The notes below the pieces were generated by a model, which worked only from the letters and a program-made list of their open reading frames with translations, was not told the DNA's origin and did not search any database. Of a stretch of DNA of 64,000 bases, positions 7,582 through 36,744 are shown one piece after another. The DNA lies in the NCBI GenBank assembly GCA_963693055.1, contig OY843751.1, positions 6,432,001-6,496,000 on the forward strand, written 5' to 3'. The stretch is from a bacterium (GTDB lineage Bacteria > Zhuqueibacterota > Zhuqueibacteria > Residuimicrobiales > Krinioviventaceae). Made by a program: the position numbers and the translations under genes. Each line of letters opens with the position of its first letter. Position 1 is the first letter of the stretch.

Positions 7582-7617
7582 AATACCTCCGGTAAAGGTA
7601 TAGCAGCACAACCAATG

Positions 7618-7653
7618 AAAAGGTCCCTGTTTTAAACGGGGGCCTTTTTTTTT
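7618..7653 (+). terminator. Rho-independent terminator
   Basis: AAAAGGTCCCTGTT/AACGGGGGCCTTTT stem followed by a T-run. Confidence 0.75.
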
Positions 7654-7880: not shown

Positions 7881-7909
7881 TTGACAAGATCGAAAAATTT
7901 ATCTATCCT
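7881..7909 (+). promoter_or_regulatory. Sigma70-type promoter, unit 1
   Basis: TTGACA (7881-7886), 17 bp spacer, TATCCT (7904-7909); same geometry as unit 2. Confidence 0.75.
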
Positions 7910-7912
7910 AAA

Positions 7913-8062
7913 AAGAGTGCTGGATTGTAAGTTTTATCGAGCGACGAGGGAACTCTCTTGTAATTCAGCGCTACACGGGGTCGTACTACACGTGAATACT
8001 GTAATCTAATTCGCAAAGAGATGCTTATGTACTGTGGGGTACAATATGAAAACAAGGGGAAA
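7913..8062 (+). ncRNA. Conserved structured 5' leader / candidate cis-regulatory RNA, copy 1
   Basis: About 150 nt, near-identical to 9229-9379 (about 10 differences by manual alignment). Begins at the predicted TSS. Long stem AGTGCTGGATTGTAA/TTGTAATTCAGCGCT with G-U pairs, and hairpin TGTACT-GTGG-GGTACA. Confidence 0.6.
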
Positions 8063-8146
8063 CGCTTTAATGGCTTCGTAGAGAATATTCTTATCCATAA
8101 TTATTTTTTTGATCATAATCGAATAATATTCATACAGGAGTTATAG

Positions 8147-8812
8147 ATGAAATTTAAAATTATTTCGTTAATTGTTTTGACCATGAGCATAACCATGCAA
8201 ACCGCGCAGGGTGCGATTGGTCTGAAAGCTGGTGTGAATTATATATATTTTAAGAACAAGGACATTCAATCCGAACCGGCAGAGATGTGGGGAATTTTCA
8301 AAGATTTCCATTTAAGCAAACGTTTTTCGCTTGCCCCGGAATTATTGATCAGCCATAAAAGAGGCAAGCTTTATAACGTAAGAGAAGCACCATGGTGGCT
8401 TTCTTCAAATGGAATAATTAATCATATAAATATTCAAATTCATACTGTTTTTTTAGAAATACCTGTCCTGTTACAATTTTCATTATTTACCAAAGACCAA
8501 TTTACCTTAAACCTGATTGCAGGTCCATCACTTTCAATCGGGTTTAGTGATAAATCGAAAAAGACGATTATACGACAGGACAAATATTTAACAGAACCAG
8601 AAAATTTACAATATGATTACAAATATGCTGATTATAACAGATTCTCCAAATATGGAAAATGTTGGAATTTTGGTATAGAATTAGTCTGGCGCAGGTTTTC
8701 ACTGGAATGCCGATACAGCAATATCAATTATGATCTGGATATGATCGCTGATCTTTGGTTTAAGGAAGAACTCATGCATTCGCTGGCATTAATTGGCGGG
8801 ATACGTTTCTAA
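8147..8812 (+). CDS. Outer-membrane beta-barrel protein (PorT/OMP_b-brl_2-like)
   Basis: Signal peptide, GLKAGVN, FLEIPVLLQF, AGPSLSIG, C-terminal Phe (GGIRF). Confidence 0.8.
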   Translation: MKFKIISLIVLTMSITMQTAQGAIGLKAGVNYIYFKNKDIQSEPAEMWGIFKDFHLSKRFSLAPELLISHKRGKLYNVREAPWWLSSNGIINHINIQIHTVFLEIPVLLQFSLFTKDQFTLNLIAGPSLSIGFSDKSKKTIIRQDKYLTEPENLQYDYKYADYNRFSKYGKCWNFGIELVWRRFSLECRYSNINYDLDMIADLWFKEELMHSLALIGGIRF

Positions 8813-8833
8813 CACAATATAAGGGGAAGTAAA

Positions 8834-9124
8834 ATGAAACAATGTATAAAAGTAGTTTTGATTATTTTATGTTTGACAATAATATCACAATCTCATGCAC
8901 AAATAATAAATGACAATAAAATTCCGGCATCAACCAGGCCTTTGTGGCACCAGGCAGGTCTGTTACCCACAAGCAGAACATTATCACCAGAGACACCAAC
9001 TATAGCAGACAATCTGGTTGTAATTAATGCAAATTCAAGTACATCGGTTGATGATCAAATTGATAACGCAATAACCAACGCAACGGGAACAACAATTATA
9101 TATTCCACCCGGAACTTCCGATGA
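8834..9124 (+). pseudogene. Truncated secreted protein, probable pectate-lyase-3-like beta-helix N-terminus
   Basis: Signal peptide, then DDQIDNAITNATGTTIIY. A shifted frame continues ATT CCA CCC GGA ACT (IPPGT), matching the xxYxPxGT motif, then stops before the unit 2 promoter. Confidence 0.55.
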
Positions 9125-9192
9125 GCCGGGCCATTAAACACCTCAATATTTTGGAATATAGTAAAAAAATTTTCTATTTATCATAATTTATC

Positions 9193-9221
9193 TTGACAAA
9201 AATAAAATTTTTATTTATTCT
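9193..9221 (+). promoter_or_regulatory. Sigma70-type promoter, unit 2
   Basis: TTGACA (9193-9198), 17 bp spacer, TATTCT (9216-9221). Confidence 0.75.
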
Positions 9222-9228
9222 AAGAAAG

Positions 9229-9379
9229 AAGAGTGCTGGATGCGTAAATTTTAACGAGTGACGAGGGAACTCGTTTGTAATTCAGCGCTACACGGGGTCG
9301 TACTATACGTGAATACTGTAATCTAATTCGCAAAGAGATGCTCATGTACTGTGGGGTACAATATGAAAGCAAGGGGAAA
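9229..9379 (+). ncRNA. Conserved structured 5' leader / candidate cis-regulatory RNA, copy 2
   Basis: Near-identical to 7913-8062; inner stem AACGAGT-GACGAGGGA-ACTCGTT inside the AGTGCTGGAT/ATTCAGCGCT stem. Confidence 0.6.
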
Positions 9380-9441
9380 AATCTTGATACCGCCATAGCC
9401 ATTTTTTACACTAAAGTCATTTATTTAAAAAGGAGTGAATT

Positions 9442-10116
9442 ATGAATACTCTGAAAGTTTTTTGTTGGGCACTGGTCCTGTTTATTGCACAAAATGTTAC
9501 GGCCAAAACCGTAAAATATGTGGAATTGGGTGTCAACCGGTCTACATTTCGTAACGAAAGCTGTACGCCTGGTTGCGGTGTTTCTGTGGGATTTGGGATA
9601 GATTACTATCCGTGGCAAAAATTCGGGGGGTTTTGGGGGTGGGGGCTGAGTATTCAAAATAAAAAAATGGATATCAAGGACCGTACGTTACCTTCTGCTG
9701 CCCCGCCAGCAACACTTTCTTTTGTATCAATTAAAGATTTTGATATCAATATAACATTCATTGAAATACCCATCAAGTTGGGTTATTCCATTGATGTGGG
9801 AAAACACATTACCTTAACCTTTTTATCTGGTTATGCTATTTCTGTACCTCTCAATGATAACACAACATCGAACCCAATAAGAAGTAGGGAACTTGCACCG
9901 GAGGAAAAGGAAACTTTCGAATTTGATTATGTGCAAAAAGATGAAACACATGTAACGTCATCAAACTATCTCCTGGTCGGCACAAGTATAGCCTATCGTA
10001 ACATGTCTATCAGTATAGATTACTTGAGTGCAAGAACAGCAACTGAAAATATAGTAAATACAAGTTTGGGAGATAAAATTGATAGTATCAAAATTTCATT
10101 TGCATTTCTGTTTTAA
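9442..10116 (+). CDS. Outer-membrane beta-barrel protein, distant paralog of 8147..8812
   Basis: Signal peptide, ELGVNRSTF, FIEIPIKLGY, C-terminal FAFLF. Confidence 0.8.
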   Translation: MNTLKVFCWALVLFIAQNVTAKTVKYVELGVNRSTFRNESCTPGCGVSVGFGIDYYPWQKFGGFWGWGLSIQNKKMDIKDRTLPSAAPPATLSFVSIKDFDINITFIEIPIKLGYSIDVGKHITLTFLSGYAISVPLNDNTTSNPIRSRELAPEEKETFEFDYVQKDETHVTSSNYLLVGTSIAYRNMSISIDYLSARTATENIVNTSLGDKIDSIKISFAFLF

Positions 10117-10148: not shown

Positions 10149-10214
10149 ATGCAAAATTATAAAAATGGTCTTTTTTTTATTGTGTTTGTTGTACTGGCTG
10201 TAAACAGCCCGTAG
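10149..10214 (+). pseudogene. Stub of a secreted-protein gene truncated at the REP
   Basis: GAGGGG RBS, then MQNYKNGLFFIVFVVLAVNSP*; the TAG stop is part of the GTAG REP motif. Confidence 0.5.
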
Positions 10215-10233
10215 CCTGGGCGTGTCGCCCAGG
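10211..10233 (+). repeat. GTAG-type REP (left)
   Basis: GTAG + CCTGGGCG-TGT-CGCCCAGG hairpin. Confidence 0.85.
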
Positions 10234-10255
10234 ATTCATATGATTATTGATACAT

Positions 10256-10805
10256 TTATTCACCATAACTACTGCCAACCGGAACGGAACGCGTATCCCC
10301 CCAATCCGGATCATACCAACCTTATTTCACATATTTATGAAATGTTGACCAGGGCCACCTTTTCGGATGTTCAACAAGACCATGCTTAACCGGATTATAA
10401 TGAATATAATCAAAATGTTTAGTCAAATCATTATCATCTTGAATGACATGCTCCCAATACCGTCGCTGCCAAACTGCTGCTTCACGATGTTTTTTTACGG
10501 ACAATATTTCGGTCACCTTCCCACCCATTGTTTTGCAGCCATGATCGCGTAAATAAACTTTTTATCATTTTCCAGCGCATTGGAAAATCCGAATCACCAT
10601 TCGGTAATGTCAAGATGCAATGAATATGATCCGGTAACAAGCATATAGCATCTGTTTTAAACGGGTATGCATTTGCTGTTTTTTTCCAGACAGCATGTAA
10701 ACACTGTCTGGCAACCGCATGAGTTAAAAAAGGCATCCGATTATAGGTTACCACTGTAAAAAAGAATGTACCACCTGGAGCTATTGATCTACGATAACGA
10801 ACCAT
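10256..10805 (-). pseudogene. rayT: REP-associated tyrosine transposase (RAYT, Y1/HUH) pseudogene
   Basis: GGTFFFTVVT, LPDHIH (HUH), WQRRYWEHVI, YIHYNPVKHG and WPWSTF motifs. Frameshift near 10500-10530 and in-frame TAA at 10322-10324, followed by GWYDPDWG...YGE*. Confidence 0.9.
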
Positions 10806-10987
10806 GAAATCCCCCTCTTGTTGATTGAATAAATTAGCATTTATTTATTATTAAACAATAATTTTATAATGTGTAACGTAATATACCCGAGTTGATCTGT
10901 TTTAAAAGCCAGACGAATAAAATCCGTGCCACTATTAGTACCACGGATTTTTTAGTTAGAATTTACAGTCCTAGTACCGGAAAAAAT

Positions 10988-11010
10988 CCTGGGCCTCAGG
11001 CCCAGGCTAC
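10988..11010 (-). repeat. GTAG-type REP (right, inverted)
   Basis: Reverse complement reads GTAG + CCTGGGCC-TGA-GGCCCAGG. Confidence 0.85.
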
Positions 11011-11099
11011 AAACTGGGTAGATATCGAAGAAAATATTGATATGAATGATACTGCTTTTGAAACATCATCTTCATTTTTTTACTCGTTCCCAAACTCCT

Positions 11100-12699
11100 C
11101 AGACTGTGTGAAAACAAACTATAGAACAGCTATTTTATAGACTTTAATGGGACAAAATGGAAAATAACATTTAAAATCACGAGTTTTCATTTTATACATT
11201 TTAATAATGCTTATTAATTGTTTCACACCAATAATATTCATTACTCTTTTCATGTTGTAAGCCAGAAATGATAAACTCATTTCCGTTTTAACCATTTCAA
11301 GCCCTTTACAAAGAAAATAGTAATGTCCCATTGCATATTTTATGGTCCCGTATGGATGTTCCACTATATTCCGCCTAGCGGCAATGATTTCTGGATTTTC
11401 TTTGACCCGTTGGCGCATTTCATCTATGATTCCTTCATGTTCCCATCGATAAATATGACGCACATCTTTGGCTGTAGTGCATTTTGATTTGAGTTTACAT
11501 TTTCGACAAGCCGCAGTCCAATATACCTTTTCTTTTTTGCCGTTATGATTTCTGAAGTATGTCCAATTCAATTGTTGTTTTGCGGGGCAAATATAGCAAT
11601 CGTCTTTAGCATTATATTGAAAACTTTTATTGGTATACAGCCCTTTTGCGCTGTTCTGTGATTTATTACCTTCCGGTAGAAAACATTCGATTTTATTATC
11701 ATGGCATTTTTTTATTTCATCTCTCTCATAGTATCCTAAATCAGCAACAGCGTTGAATCCTTCAATTTGAAATAACTCTTTCACCCTGTTTGTCATATTA
11801 TCAAGTTGATGCAGGTCATTCCCTTCGTTTGTAATATCAAAGTCAACGACCAACTTGTATTTACCGTCAACTGCACTTTGAATATTGTAACACGCATCCT
11901 GCCCCTTATGTCCCGTGCGCATGATACGGCAGTCAGGATCAGTCAGGGCAATCTGTGTTTCGCCTGTTGCCTCTAATTCAGCTTCATAGCCTTGCAGGGT
12001 GCTTTTTTGTGTCTTTAGGTGTTCAATCTTTTTTTTTACTTTATTTTCCGACGGATGGGAGGCACTCTTTTCATGTTTATCATTTTGTTCAATATTTTCA
12101 AGATAATCATTTATACTTTGATCTATTTCATTGATCATTTTTTTTATTTTCGTTTTACTAAAAACTTTTCTGGTGTGATTGACTGCAGCGAATTTACTGC
12201 CGTCTATGGCAATCAATTCCAGGGCAAACAAATTGAGTTCACGACAATAAAGGACAAATTCCCGATGTACTTTTTTAAGTGCTCCTTTATTGTCCTTTCG
12301 AAAATCTGCAATAGTTTTAAAGTCTGGTCGTAATCCACGAAGCAACCATATTACTTCTAAATTTTTGATTGTCTCTTTTTCAAGCATACGACTGGACCGA
12401 ACACGATTGAGATAACCATAAATGTATAATTTTAAAAGATCTGCCGGATTGTAAGGTTTTCTGCCTACTGCCTGGGGATCTGCATGGGTAAATCCGAGTT
12501 TAAGTAAGTCAAGAGTATCAACATAAGCGTCAAGAAACCTTACCGGATTATCTTCGGTTACATAGTCATCCATTACCGATGGAAACATCGTCTCCTGCTC
12601 TCGATTATGACCTTGAACATATCGCATAGTTGGATTCTCCTTTCAACTTGAATATCCAACTTTAATATCATATATTCAAGATCATTTTCACACAGTCTG
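11100..12699 (-). mobile_element. IS1182-family insertion sequence, apparently intact
   Basis: 15-bp perfect terminal IRs CAGACTGTGTGAAAA (11100-11114) and TTTTCACACAGTCTG (12685-12699); 4-bp target duplication TCCT (11096-11099, 12700-12703). Confidence 0.92.
11119..12627 (-). CDS. IS1182-family DDE transposase
   Basis: GRKPYNP..LLKLYIYGY, PDFKTIADFRK, AIDGSK, TDPDCR, ADLGY, YICPA, VEHPYGTIK. Confidence 0.95.
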   Translation of the reverse strand: MRYVQGHNREQETMFPSVMDDYVTEDNPVRFLDAYVDTLDLLKLGFTHADPQAVGRKPYNPADLLKLYIYGYLNRVRSSRMLEKETIKNLEVIWLLRGLRPDFKTIADFRKDNKGALKKVHREFVLYCRELNLFALELIAIDGSKFAAVNHTRKVFSKTKIKKMINEIDQSINDYLENIEQNDKHEKSASHPSENKVKKKIEHLKTQKSTLQGYEAELEATGETQIALTDPDCRIMRTGHKGQDACYNIQSAVDGKYKLVVDFDITNEGNDLHQLDNMTNRVKELFQIEGFNAVADLGYYERDEIKKCHDNKIECFLPEGNKSQNSAKGLYTNKSFQYNAKDDCYICPAKQQLNWTYFRNHNGKKEKVYWTAACRKCKLKSKCTTAKDVRHIYRWEHEGIIDEMRQRVKENPEIIAARRNIVEHPYGTIKYAMGHYYFLCKGLEMVKTEMSLSFLAYNMKRVMNIIGVKQLISIIKMYKMKTRDFKCYFPFCPIKVYKIAVL

Positions 12700-12939
12700 T
12701 CCTATTTGGGAACGCCATGGCTGGATAAACTCCGTTTATCCAATATGTTAAGGATGTGTCTTTATTGTCTTGGAGACAATCCACCTAACGGTGGACAATC
12801 CCATTAAAATGGGATCTACAGGTAGAATGAAAATTGTTACGTTTCCCCTCGTTCCCGGCAACCGGTGCCAGAATTTGATTGCATCTGCCAGCTGGCGATA
12901 TACCGAGCGATCAAAGAAAAGTTTTAAGGACGAGTCCTA

Positions 12940-32768: not shown

Positions 32769-34055
32769 ATGAGTATCAAGAGAAGAGATTTTTTAAAACA
32801 GGCGGGTTTGCTGGCTGGTGCTGCATCAGTTATACCGGCATCAGCCTGGAGTAGCAGCAATGTGATGCCCAATGACCGTATCACCCTGGGTTTTATTGGT
32901 GTTGGTAAACAGGGGGAAGGCCTTTTACGCGGATTTTTAAATTCACCGGAAACACATGTGCTTGCAGTTTGTGATGTTGACGCGAATAAAATGGAGCGGG
33001 CTAGAAAAAATGTGGACGCGTATTATTCCAAGCAAAAGGAATTGAATTATAAAGGATGTGATGCTTATCGTGATTTTAGAGATGTTCTGGAACGTAAAGA
33101 TATTGACGCGGTAGTTATTGCAACGCCTGATCACTGGCACGCTATACCTGCAATCATGGCTGCGAGGGCTGGTAAAGACATTTACTGTGAAAAACCTCTG
33201 ACCTTGACCATTGCTGAAGGCCGTGAAATGGTTAACGAAGTTCGCCGTCATAACCGTGTGTTCCAGACAGGCAGCATGCAGCGATCTAGTAGTGGTTTTC
33301 GTCAAGCATGCGAACTGGTCCGTAATGGTTATATTGGTGATGTCAAAACAGTACGTGTTAGCATTCGTACGGGATTTATCCCTCATCCTATTGTTTGTGA
33401 ATTGCCTGAAGAACCAAAACCCGCCGAGTTGGATTGGGACATGTGGCAGGGCCCCGCTCCAAACCGTCCTTACAATGCTATTTTGGCTCCTCCAATCAGT
33501 TTTACCGGATATCCGGCATGGCGTAATTATCGAGATTATTCCGGTGGCGGCATGACAGATTGGGGCGCGCACCATTTTGATATAGCGCAATGGGGGTTGG
33601 GTATGGATTACAGCGGCCCGGTAGAGATTAATCCCCCCGATGATAAAGATTATAAATTGTTAACATATAAATATGCCAATGGCGTGGTGATGGATACGGA
33701 CTTTGATGATAATCGTATTTTGTTTACAGGCACCGATGGCTGGATAGATGTAAACAGGTCATATTTAAAGGCAAGTAACCCCAAGTTGGTAAACCACAAG
33801 ATTGGACCGAATGAGATTCGACTGTATCACAGTAATGATCATCATGATGACTGGCTGCAAGCCATTAGAAACCGACGAATCCCCATTACAGATGTGGAAA
33901 TTGGTTGTCGGTCTGTTACAGTATGCCATCTTGGTAACCTTGCCGTTCAGTTGGGTAGGAAATTACAATGGGACCCGGATACAGAAAATTTTGTTAATGA
34001 CCCGGAAGCAAACAGGCTTAAAGAACGCTCAAAGCGGAGTCCCTGGTATTTGTAA
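32769..34055 (+). CDS. Tat-exported Gfo/Idh/MocA oxidoreductase (tandem paralog 1)
   Basis: KRRDFL; ATPDHWH; DIYCEKP; QTGSMQRS; GGGMTDWGAHHFD. Confidence 0.9.
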   Translation: MSIKRRDFLKQAGLLAGAASVIPASAWSSSNVMPNDRITLGFIGVGKQGEGLLRGFLNSPETHVLAVCDVDANKMERARKNVDAYYSKQKELNYKGCDAYRDFRDVLERKDIDAVVIATPDHWHAIPAIMAARAGKDIYCEKPLTLTIAEGREMVNEVRRHNRVFQTGSMQRSSSGFRQACELVRNGYIGDVKTVRVSIRTGFIPHPIVCELPEEPKPAELDWDMWQGPAPNRPYNAILAPPISFTGYPAWRNYRDYSGGGMTDWGAHHFDIAQWGLGMDYSGPVEINPPDDKDYKLLTYKYANGVVMDTDFDDNRILFTGTDGWIDVNRSYLKASNPKLVNHKIGPNEIRLYHSNDHHDDWLQAIRNRRIPITDVEIGCRSVTVCHLGNLAVQLGRKLQWDPDTENFVNDPEANRLKERSKRSPWYL

Positions 34056-34073
34056 AAAAAACAGGAGAACAGT

Positions 34074-35390
34074 GTGGAAAACAAAAAAATTGACAGGCGT
34101 GGATTTGTAAAACGTACATTGGGCGCGGGTATTGCGGCTGCAGCATTTCCGGCAATTATTCCGGCAACGGTATTAGGAAAAAACGGAGCAATTGCCCCCA
34201 GCAATAAAGTAACCATGGCTTGTATTGGTGTTGGCTGGCAGGGTACATGGAATATGGAAAATTTCCTCAGCGAAGACGACTGTCATATAATTGCGGTTTG
34301 TGATATTGATAAAGATCATCTTGCAAATGCTAAAGATATTGTTGATAGAAAATATGACAATAAAGATTGTAAAGCATATCATAATTTTAGAGATGTATTG
34401 GCACGTAAAGATATAGATACGGTTTGTCTCAGTCTTCCGGATCACTGGCATTCAATTCCTGCAATTGAAGCGGCAAAAGCCGGAAAAGATATATTTGGTG
34501 AAAAGCCTTTTTCTCATAGTCTTGTAGAAGGCCGGGCTATGGTGAATGCTGTTACTAAATATAACCGTATCTGGCAAACCGGTAGTTGGCAGCGGTCTCA
34601 ATCCAACTTTCGGTTTGGTGCAGAGCTTGTATTGAATGGTCGTATTGGTAAATTGCACACTGTTGAAGTGGGCTTACCCGCGGGCCATTCTGATTTTGCG
34701 AATACTAAAGGACAGGATGTAATTTCTACACCACCACCTGAGCTGGATTATGAAACCTGGGTGGGTCCTGCTCCTTATCTTCCATATGTTAAATCATATG
34801 TACATAAAAACTGGCGCTGGCGTCTTGAGTTTGGTGGCGGTCAGTTGATGGACTGGGTAGGTCATCATGTAGATATTGCACACTGGGGTATGGGTACCGA
34901 GTATACTGGTCCGGTTGAAATTGAAGGTACCGGTGAATATCCTGCAACAGGTGTTTGGAATACTGCCGGTAAATATTGGGTCGATACTGTATATCCCAAT
35001 GGTGTGAAAATGGTTATGGCCGGCGGTTACCCGGAAATTCGTGGCGGCACAAAATGGATTGGAGATAAAGGATGGGTCTTTGTAACCCGTGGTGGTGTGC
35101 TTGAAGCATCTGATCCTACCTTGAAACGGGAAGTTATTGGACCGAATGAGATCCATTTGTTTGAATCTCCCGGTCATTGGCGTAATTTTATTGATTGTGT
35201 TAAAACACGTAAAGAAACCATTACCCCTTGTGAAGTTGCGCACCGTTCCGCATCACCAGGTCACCTGGGTCAAATCTCAATGCTGCTGGGACGTAAATTG
35301 AAATTTAATCCCGATACCGAAGAAATTATCGGTGATGATGCTGCATCCAGAATGCTTGGCAACAGTATGAGAAGTCCCTGGCACTTGTAA
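34074..35390 (+). CDS. Tat-exported Gfo/Idh/MocA oxidoreductase (tandem paralog 2)
   Basis: DRRGFV; LPDHWH; GEKP; QTGSWQRS; GGQLMDWVGHHVD. Confidence 0.9.
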   Translation: MENKKIDRRGFVKRTLGAGIAAAAFPAIIPATVLGKNGAIAPSNKVTMACIGVGWQGTWNMENFLSEDDCHIIAVCDIDKDHLANAKDIVDRKYDNKDCKAYHNFRDVLARKDIDTVCLSLPDHWHSIPAIEAAKAGKDIFGEKPFSHSLVEGRAMVNAVTKYNRIWQTGSWQRSQSNFRFGAELVLNGRIGKLHTVEVGLPAGHSDFANTKGQDVISTPPPELDYETWVGPAPYLPYVKSYVHKNWRWRLEFGGGQLMDWVGHHVDIAHWGMGTEYTGPVEIEGTGEYPATGVWNTAGKYWVDTVYPNGVKMVMAGGYPEIRGGTKWIGDKGWVFVTRGGVLEASDPTLKREVIGPNEIHLFESPGHWRNFIDCVKTRKETITPCEVAHRSASPGHLGQISMLLGRKLKFNPDTEEIIGDDAASRMLGNSMRSPWHL

Positions 35391-35396
35391 AAACAA

Positions 35397-36704
35397 ATGG
35401 AGGCATTTTTGAAAAGACGACATTTTTTAAAAGCGGCGGCACTAAGTGCGGGCGCGGCAGCTTTTCCGACAATCGTCCCTGCAACTGCATTGGGAAAGAA
35501 TGGAGCTGTAGCTGCGAATGATCGTATTGTTATGGGTTTTATCGGACTGGGGGGCATGGGTACCGGTAATTTGAACGGGTTTTTGGGTAAATCTGATGCG
35601 CATGTTGTTGCGGTTTGTGATGTAGATACGGATCATCGAAATGAAGCAAAAGAAATGATAGATAGAAAATATGGGAATCAAGATTGTGAATCCTATAATG
35701 ATTTTCGTGAATTGCTGGAACGGGATGATCTGGATGCCATTTGTAATGCAACACCTGATCATTGGCATGCAATTGTATCTACACGTGCTGCCAGAAAAGG
35801 ATTAGATATATACCAGGAAAAACCGCTTGCATATACTATTGCTGAAGGTCGTGCCATACTTGACGCGGTTGAAAAATATGGAATTATTTTTCAAACCGGT
35901 AGTCAGCAGCGATCGAGCAGTAATTTTCGTTTTGCCTGTGAATTGGTAAGAAACGGCAGAATAGGCCAGGTAGATATGGTCAAGGTGGGGTTACCTTCTA
36001 AAAGCAGTATACGAGATTATGGTGTAGAGTTTACCAAACCTCCGAAAGGTTTTGATTATGATATGTGGCTGGGACCCGCACCCAAAGTTCCTTATAGTCC
36101 AGGTAGATGCCACTGGAATTTTCGCTGGATCAGCGACTATTCAGGTGGGCAGCTAACCGATTGGGCAGGTCACCATATAGATATAGCTCAATGGGGCATG
36201 GATTCGGAAATGACGGCTCCTATTGAAATTGAAGGAACCGGAGTTTTCCCATCTGGAGATACAATTCTTTATGATACCATGGAGAGCTATGAATTTGATT
36301 GTAAATATAAAAAAGGATTTACGATTAAAGTAATGGACAGGGACCGTCATCCACGCGGTATGGGTGTAATATTTGAAGGCACTGAAGGATGGGTTTATGT
36401 TACACGTGGTGAGATTGATGCACATCCCAAATCGTTACTTCGATCTACTATTGGTCCTAATGAAGTTCATTTGTATGAAAGTAATGACCACCGCCAAAAT
36501 TTTTTGGATTGTGTGCGCACTCGTCAGGAGCCCATTGCACCTGCCAGAGTTGCACATCGCTCCATTATGGTGGCGCATCTGGGCTTGACAGCCATAAAGA
36601 TGGGACAGAAACTGTACTGGGATCCGGAAAAGGAACAGTACGTAAACAATCCGGAAGCGAACCGGTATTTGTCTCGGGCAATGAGAAGTCCCTGGAAATT
36701 ATAA
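35397..36704 (+). CDS. Tat-exported Gfo/Idh/MocA oxidoreductase (tandem paralog 3)
   Basis: KRRHFL; TPDHWH; QEKP; QTGSQQRS; GGQLTDWAGHHID. The real start may be TTG at 35409, after GGAGG. Confidence 0.9.
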   Translation: MEAFLKRRHFLKAAALSAGAAAFPTIVPATALGKNGAVAANDRIVMGFIGLGGMGTGNLNGFLGKSDAHVVAVCDVDTDHRNEAKEMIDRKYGNQDCESYNDFRELLERDDLDAICNATPDHWHAIVSTRAARKGLDIYQEKPLAYTIAEGRAILDAVEKYGIIFQTGSQQRSSSNFRFACELVRNGRIGQVDMVKVGLPSKSSIRDYGVEFTKPPKGFDYDMWLGPAPKVPYSPGRCHWNFRWISDYSGGQLTDWAGHHIDIAQWGMDSEMTAPIEIEGTGVFPSGDTILYDTMESYEFDCKYKKGFTIKVMDRDRHPRGMGVIFEGTEGWVYVTRGEIDAHPKSLLRSTIGPNEVHLYESNDHRQNFLDCVRTRQEPIAPARVAHRSIMVAHLGLTAIKMGQKLYWDPEKEQYVNNPEANRYLSRAMRSPWKL

Positions 36705-36744
36705 TAATCTGGTAAATAAAATTTAACTATAAATAGAGTAGAGG

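Follow-up and report, generated by a model that had tools for sequence, protein, structure and literature searches.

The window analysed here, a stretch of 64,000 nucleotides of one bacterial genome (G000), holds two outer-membrane beta-barrel genes of family PF13568 (8147..8812, 221 aa, and 9442..10116, 224 aa), each preceded by its own predicted promoter and by a copy of the same leader, all on the forward strand. An intrinsic-terminator-like hairpin (7617..7649, forward strand) closes the upstream gene and separates it from this unit. Between the two barrels lies the 5' remnant (8834..9124, forward strand, 96 aa) of a large secreted beta-helix cargo gene, which is cut off at the beginning of a palindromic repeat and of the second promoter module. 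The predicted promoters are of the sigma-70 type (TTGACA-N17-TATCCT at 7881..7909 and TTGACA-N17-TATTCT at 9193..9221), and both score 10/12 against the consensus, in line with the matching pair described in the first-pass annotation. They were among the four best of 16 promoter-like sites in a scan that is weak by itself because shuffled sequences give 11.0 +/- 3.6 sites; the spacing of the -35 and -10 boxes is constant in all 10 homologues aligned together with their promoters. Mobile and repeated sequences follow downstream: a REP-associated tyrosine transposase (NF047646) at 10211-11010 sits between two inverted GTAG repeats, the left of which breaks the start of a second cargo gene (about 10150-10214). 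An insertion sequence with 30-nt inverted ends, DUF772 and a DDE transposase, which we take to be IS1182-like, occupies 11085-12714, and three tandem paralogous genes with a spacing of ~1.3 kb (repeat families D1, D3-D5) lie at 32778-36707.

The two leader copies (7913-8062 and 9229-9379) differ by 9 substitutions and 1 gap over 151 aligned positions, which confirms the count of about ten differences made at first sight. With the promoters included, 165 of 188 positions are identical (88%, E 2e-64), and this is the sole significant match between the two 1.3-kb regions; the leader is indeed far more conserved than the genes behind it, as the barrels are 20% identical. The duplication is real, but its earlier 3' end at ~150 nt was set too short: copy-to-copy homology extends ~20 nt further, to the stop codon of a short leader frame (8079-8081 in copy 1, 9396-9398 in copy 2), so that the element measures ~170 bases overall.

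Eleven homologues of the leader RNA are distributed over two species of one genus. The search for additional copies that had been proposed for this genome yielded five full copies (C1 67056, 147984, 149105, 6439913 and 6441229) and a short diverged copy, d, at 6171681; the sister species G001 added five, namely three full copies, one 5' half and one diverged full-length copy, e2. Every G000 copy lies upstream of a barrel gene, d at a distance of ~400 nt, and the copies of the sister species occupy the same three loci as in G000, with differing downstream cassettes. Outside the genus, BLAST detected no leader RNA in 39 of 41 relatives, copy d as a query against 17 other genomes of the family gave a single 20-nt match within a coding region, and a 25-base pattern with up to 3 mismatches was absent from 165 other genomes of the phylum. 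Covariance model R1 returned four weak matches (E 0.009-0.04) with no further motif parts from 123 other genomes of the class, and model R2 none from 41 other genomes of the order. Exact patterns matched 3 and 28 stretches in GTDB, of which only the sister genome was real, as well as 86 metagenome and 5 viral stretches (best E 0.022 by nhmmer over all 91 loci). BLAST against phages and plasmids gave one 35-nt chance match and none, respectively, and contigs aligned to the region contained only junction variants already present in G000 and G001. Rfam had no match within the window at gathering score, four weak E-value matches in the window lay off the element, and there was no match at copies d, e2 or three other leaders, in accordance with the initial impression that no known riboswitch class is present. 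The paper listings and accessible texts searched gave no description of the element; the supplements of PMC9973294 and PMC12992588 could list members from this phylum.

Conservation is uneven along the leader. The eight full copies share a core of 98 nt at 94-99% identity, in which 87 of 98 positions are invariant and 11 columns vary, and divergence is greater outside it (promoter types 63-78%, insert of the 5' stem 73-95%, 3' types 49-67% identity). The first-pass annotation had regarded the whole element as structured, which is supported for the 5' stem, by folding and by covariation, but not as a riboswitch-like fold over its full length. This stem, P1, encloses a variable insert and spans 7916..7972 in copy 1 (7916-7925 pairing with 7963-7972) and 9232..9289 in copy 2 (9232-9241 with 9280-9289). 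The 5' stem domain alone folds beyond shuffles in 10/10 homologues (z -2.1 to -6.2; -2.7 and -3.5 in window copies 1 and 2). Taken whole, the 150 nt do not exceed shuffles in folding (z -0.28 and -1.11), nor do the ~109 nt outside that domain (z -0.85 to +0.7). In a nine-row alignment 100% of the P1 cells are paired, with two double and two single changes, and the stem is rebuilt by compensatory changes in the diverged copy e2, the one sequence that contributes all of the P1 covariation. The covariation check suggested at the outset thus supports P1 and nothing beyond it: a stable conserved or covarying fold of the core past P1 was sought among the homologues and none was found.

P1 is followed by a sequence-conserved core segment (7973..8027 and 9290..9344, forward strand) with the invariant islands CACRGGG, GTAC and GCAA, and these islands, like P1, are retained in the diverged copies d and e2. 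Behind it, a hairpin (8028..8043 and 9345..9360, forward strand) covers the GGGG Shine-Dalgarno of the leader frame (8036-8039 and 9353-9356); 98% of its cells are paired, and three one-sided (wobble) changes preserve pairing. The GTAC island is predicted to pair with this hairpin at a probability of 0.3-0.6 in three copies and near zero in most others. Two of the helices proposed earlier did not survive comparison, as the CACG/CGTG hairpin is broken in 2/9 aligned homologues (e2 and g7) and the inner stem-loop around GACGAGGGA shifts its register from copy to copy. Other candidates were dropped as well: an alternative helix from CAC to a distal GTG (pairing probability <=0.03), a long-range ACRG/YRGU helix that by eye fails in w2, g7 and g9, and a coding reading of the core upstream of the leader ATG, where only 2/11 variable columns fall at third positions and an in-frame TAA interrupts 7/8 copies.

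The 3' part of the element contains a previously unannotated frame that the first-pass annotation had missed. All eight full copies read GGGG, 6 nt, ATG, 10 more codons and TAG, 41-65 nt ahead of the barrel start, and the frame ends in PP in six of them, in SP in one and in AS in one. Copy 2 (9363..9398, forward strand) encodes MKARGKILIPP, with Pro-Pro-stop 43 nt before the barrel ATG; copy 1 (8046..8081, forward strand) encodes MKTRGNALMAS, without Pro-Pro and 65 nt before the barrel ATG, and keeps start, length and stop as in the other copies though it ends in AS. Across five diverged 3' types there is no indel in the frame, its length and stop are constant, and four of the six codons that differ between g5 and g9 are synonymous. 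The 11 residues contain no Cys and no hydrophobic stretch. Copy e2 has ATT at the start position and ends in SL, and copy d is without the leader-frame segment. The 11-codon Pro-Pro-stop frame is also the feature that is common to other genera, and in G017, from another genus, an independent, unrelated 11-codon frame has the same layout. Two further frames were observed. One opens at a conserved ATG after the GCAAAG island and reaches the barrel start in the window (8021-8146 and 9338-9445), its stop by eye abutting or overlapping the barrel ATG in both window copies and lying earlier in other copies. The other follows copy d (L003:3680-3800; G000:C1:6171681), behind two DUF1670 genes; as read from the sequence, its 11 codons include four for Phe and one for Trp, it crosses a terminator-like hairpin, and it looks like a classical attenuator.

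A comparison of upstream regions revealed a short motif 51-59 nt before the barrel ATG that reads Pro-Pro-stop. Among 47 barrel genes from 34 genomes outside the genus, seven have PP-stop 30-70 nt upstream, compared with 3/2,296 other G000 genes (Fisher p 9e-11), six of these seven loci having belonged to the motif discovery set; seven control dipeptides occurred at the same position in 0-1 of 47, and 40/47 barrels are without the motif at that distance. The set contains one negative from G158, no positive claim rests on G158 or G162, and a PP match in G029 that lies inside an upstream gene was excluded by the non-coding filter. Four loci were found after discovery, of which one belongs to the seven, another has the motif at 75 nt and two came from a pattern search. 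In 13/13 cases a CCGCC site 51-58 nt upstream has an in-frame stop behind it, with all three stop kinds represented, and none of 1,992 long G000 frames ends in PP. PP-stop was not seen before barrels of other phyla, few of which have enough upstream sequence, and an SGVPP-type pattern was no commoner genome-wide than its reversed control, with 7 of its 36 matches directly before barrel genes.

Several of these loci carry a longer form. Outside the genus, 7/7 long-type loci keep the PP frame open for at least 50 codons, compared with a null of 8% among 138 control stops; two long-type loci found later have it open over 62 and 68 codons, and two of the seven also have a second open frame. The 59-aa leader of G002 is a called gene with a strong Shine-Dalgarno and two homologues ending GVPP; the three 59-aa homologues share one invariant Cys, and NCBIfam gave no match to this form. 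G012 and G002 differ only synonymously at each of their last five differing codons, and over 53 codons there is no third-position bias (13/14/15). A nucleotide motif also fits, because CCG encodes the first Pro without exception and these bases can form a hairpin with a G-rich arm. Promoter-like hexamers occur inside three long frames, 22-32 nt before the stop, and the nearest ATG is out of frame at three loci. Different arrangements were noted before some barrel-cargo pairs: in L176 (G159) a different ~190-nt leader with a strong terminator-like hairpin and no Rfam match, in L186 and L189 (G153, G154) the end of a Fis-type activator gene, repeats of a TTTTGGATAGG box and possibly a sigma-54-type promoter in place of a proline leader, and in L356, a Cloacimonetes record, presumably a sequence resembling an integron attC site.

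The pairing of a barrel with a secreted beta-helix protein behind it, ~1,100 aa long and carrying a T9SS-type tail, recurs in the phylum, and the remnant between the window barrels by eye resembles the N-terminus of a 1142-aa cargo protein in G001. At all three shared loci the downstream genes differ between G000 and G001, G001 keeps the whole cargo gene where G000 has remnants, and for the second barrel of the window the closest relative sits in G001, at a different locus. The points at which copies most often cease to be homologous are the leader stop (+168 to +171) and the barrel start (+216). With 11 homologues in two species, and cassettes that differ between the species at the same loci, the suggestion of a portable expression module has gained ground. 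The shared barrels differ at 2/66 and 9/83 fourfold sites, against 841/3,489 (24%) for 21 flanking genes, so the cassettes likely moved between the species recently; core identity between the species is therefore not clean evidence of selection, and part of the high identity of the leader may stem from this exchange. As judged from sequence, the evidence for selection on the leader is the retention of the islands and P1 in d and e2. Together with the absence of an Rfam family, the 11 homologues and the compensatory rebuilding of P1, it supports the selected cis-acting leader put forward in the first-pass annotation. Two observations concern truncated units. In G001 (L045:11589-13100) a leader that is truncated behind the GTAC island, and so reduced to its 5' half, lies ahead of an LRR lipoprotein gene, with a tandem copy of the promoter module 2.3 kb away. 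At window 8834-9124 and L001:5933-6256, two different cargo genes are cut directly after Ile-Ile-Tyr codons, with a different palindromic repeat at each, and intact cargo genes read on past this point.

Our best reading of the element is a leader-peptide attenuator that would resemble CutF, CruR and TnaC in action and would be gated by the upstream RNA. By its sequence features it is not a member of the CutF-like, CruR or RAPP groups, being without signal peptide, Cys motif and RAPP. CutF of Rhodobacter capsulatus and CutF-like frames share with it a small upstream frame with a C-terminal Pro-Pro, <100 nt before an exported-protein operon, and the proposed ribosome stalling beside the downstream Shine-Dalgarno (PMC9973294). 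The general CutF-like/DUF2946 layout (Pro-Pro in the last 15 residues, frame <150 aa, same strand, short gap) is found in 6/8 full copies; a signal peptide for Sec and a CxxxC or CXXC metal site are absent from the 11-codon frames. CutF itself carries a Sec signal and a CxxxC copper site and requires a stem-loop over the Shine-Dalgarno (PMC9973294), whereas the frame here, 11 codons long, lacks both signal and cysteine, stops right after Pro-Pro, lies inside a conserved RNA and pairs from stop to start only weakly and inconsistently. In Bordetella pertussis, CruR (DUF2946) is likewise a terminal-proline upstream frame heading an outer-membrane protein operon, and Rho is available in this genome too, but CXXC, RAPP and a copper context are absent here (PMC9426467) and the spacer measures 41-65 nt, compared with 162 nt in CruR (figure from PMC9973294). 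In RAPP/RGPP arrest peptides, too, the small frame lies upstream of envelope genes and carries xxPP close to its C-terminus (PMC12992588). The loci here and their relatives lack the R-A/G-P-P motif and end in FRPP, LIPP, FKPP, LKPP or GVPP with the stop directly after, so that a stall would occur at termination, unlike in RAPP/RGPP, and the short form is without a localisation signal (PMC12992588).

TnaC and PepNL are short signal-less frames that stall at their own stop codon and affect the next gene; there is no sequence relation, TnaC senses Trp and PepNL involves UGA read-through, whereas the frames here end in TAG (PMC11890864). In the E. coli model YbeL-PP, Pro-Pro-stop stalls in every context tested, but this system is engineered, and its mRNA cleavage and tmRNA tagging would lower, not raise, downstream output (PMC3834316). 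Control of the RfaH/UpxY/LoaP type involves a specialised NusG paralogue, and a single NusG was found in the genome (Pfam; phmmer --max on six frames), which also speaks against the antiterminator of the first-pass annotation insofar as it needs such a paralogue. The ompA 5' stem is a 5' stabiliser of an outer-membrane mRNA. Other 5' stabilisers, the ermC stall site and cryIIIA, resemble the proposed arrangement, in which a bound ribosome and a 5'-terminal stem head a long mRNA, but they act mainly against RNase J and are not known as multi-copy cassette anchors (PMC3997798).

The frame usually ends in Pro-Pro-stop, and the element is thus likely a ribosome-pausing control switch rather than a known riboswitch. 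Specifically, we give about even chances to the reading that it is a 5' leader whose 11-codon Pro-Pro-stop frame pauses the ribosome ~42 nt before the barrel and thereby sets operon expression. The frequency of ribosome loading on the leader frame is predicted to be set by the conserved upstream RNA, the frame would be translated when its Shine-Dalgarno hairpin opens, and the invariant GTAC island might act as the switch strand by pairing with this hairpin. The ribosome would then pause at the Pro-Pro-stop. We favour a positive effect, in which the parked ribosome would hold the spacer and the barrel start open and would shield the long operon mRNA from Rho and RNase E/Y; the sign could be the opposite if mRNA cleavage dominates. 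The regulated unit would be the operon of the barrel and the secreted protein, and the leader, being common to the cassettes, would also act as a homology anchor for their exchange. In E. coli a Pro-Pro at the C-terminus blocks termination and leads to ribosome arrest, accompanied by cleavage of the mRNA and tagging by tmRNA (PMC3834316), EF-P appears not to act at termination (PMC12856214), and an ABC-F protein rescues proline-dependent termination stalls (10.64898/2026.10.08.757592). G000 encodes Rho, EF-P, tmRNA, RNase E/G, RNase Y and CsrA; RNase J was looked for in the genome and not found, which weakens the 5'-roadblock part of the model. Folding of the spacer was predicted as well: in copy 2 the AU-rich spacer (9399..9444, forward strand) would bring the leader stop into weak pairing with the Shine-Dalgarno and ATG of the barrel (-5 kcal/mol, no better than shuffles), and a clamp in which the leader end pairs with the barrel start is predicted in w1, w2, g7, g9 and c. 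The stop-to-start pairing exceeds shuffles at only 1/19 loci, and a parked ribosome raises the predicted access to the barrel start by at least 0.10 at only 5/15 loci.

Other explanations account for parts of these observations. The element could be a constitutive portable expression module in which the 5' stem and a loaded or paused ribosome stabilise the long mRNA without any sensing. No structure other than P1 is both stable and covarying, P1 lies at the predicted 5' end, the 3' part of the leader has z values near 0, 5' stems and stalled ribosomes are known mRNA stabilisers (PMC3997798), and the cargo behind the leader is unrelated in places, with an LRR lipoprotein and a non-PF13568 protein among it in G001; we nevertheless hold this to be unlikely, as it leaves the invariant islands in d and e2 unexplained, offers no account of a Shine-Dalgarno held in a hairpin and meets a genome in which RNase J was not found. 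Rather less probable still is that the high identity is due mainly to recombination, the leader serving as a homology anchor for horizontal exchange and conversion of surface cassettes and much of its core being young and not selected. The different cassettes at all three shared loci, the ends of copy homology at the leader stop or barrel start, the scarcity of fourfold differences in shared barrels (2/66 and 9/83 vs 841/3,489 in flanking genes), the mostly singleton core changes and the restriction of the RNA to one genus are what this would predict. However, the 94-99% identical core has more diverged parts on either side, identity within a genome is not above that between genomes, d and e2 share islands and P1 despite their divergence, and PP-stop is present in genera without the RNA.

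That the core binds a ligand or protein (as a riboswitch or CsrA-type target) and acts directly on the barrel gene, the short frame being incidental, seems quite improbable to us, even with 87/98 core positions invariant in eight copies, G-rich unpaired islands retained in d and e2, CsrA encoded in the genome and a terminator-like hairpin after the core in d. Against it stand the lack of an Rfam match and of a stable or covarying fold past P1, the very narrow distribution, the missing GGA loop in d and the occurrence of PP-stop, but not of the RNA, across genera. We consider it very improbable that the signal is one of nucleotides, such as a small hairpin, pause site or operator near the transcription start, with Pro-Pro-stop read by chance. 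CCGCC is nearly invariant and pairs with the upstream G-rich arm, g9, w1, e2 and one G002 copy keep G-U pairs while the amino acid changes, and promoter-like sites lie just upstream at three loci, but the variable positions are third codon positions, the next triplet is always a stop, open frames are long at 9/9 long-type loci and there is no NusG paralogue.

What we describe is a lineage-restricted leader, reused before swapped cassettes, in which a minimal Pro-Pro-stop frame joins a conserved core and a 5' stem that covaries. Ordinary G000 gene ends avoid Pro-Pro-stop, yet before one outer-membrane family it is retained at a fixed distance, and its occurrence before barrels spans several families of an uncultured phylum, a small natural candidate case for programmed termination stalling. 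Known proline-stall leaders sense via the nascent peptide, through a signal sequence or metal site; an 11-residue peptide cannot exit the ribosome tunnel, so any sensing would have to reside in the upstream RNA or in termination and rescue factors. The element also marks the exchange point of surface-protein cassettes between two species. It is an improbable but far-reaching reading that a new sensing RNA class gates ribosome loading onto a signal-less Pro-Pro-stop trap, with the leader doubling as an 'expression site' for barrel and secreted-protein cassettes swapped between species; if true, this would give these bacteria regulated surface variation without a dedicated recombinase.
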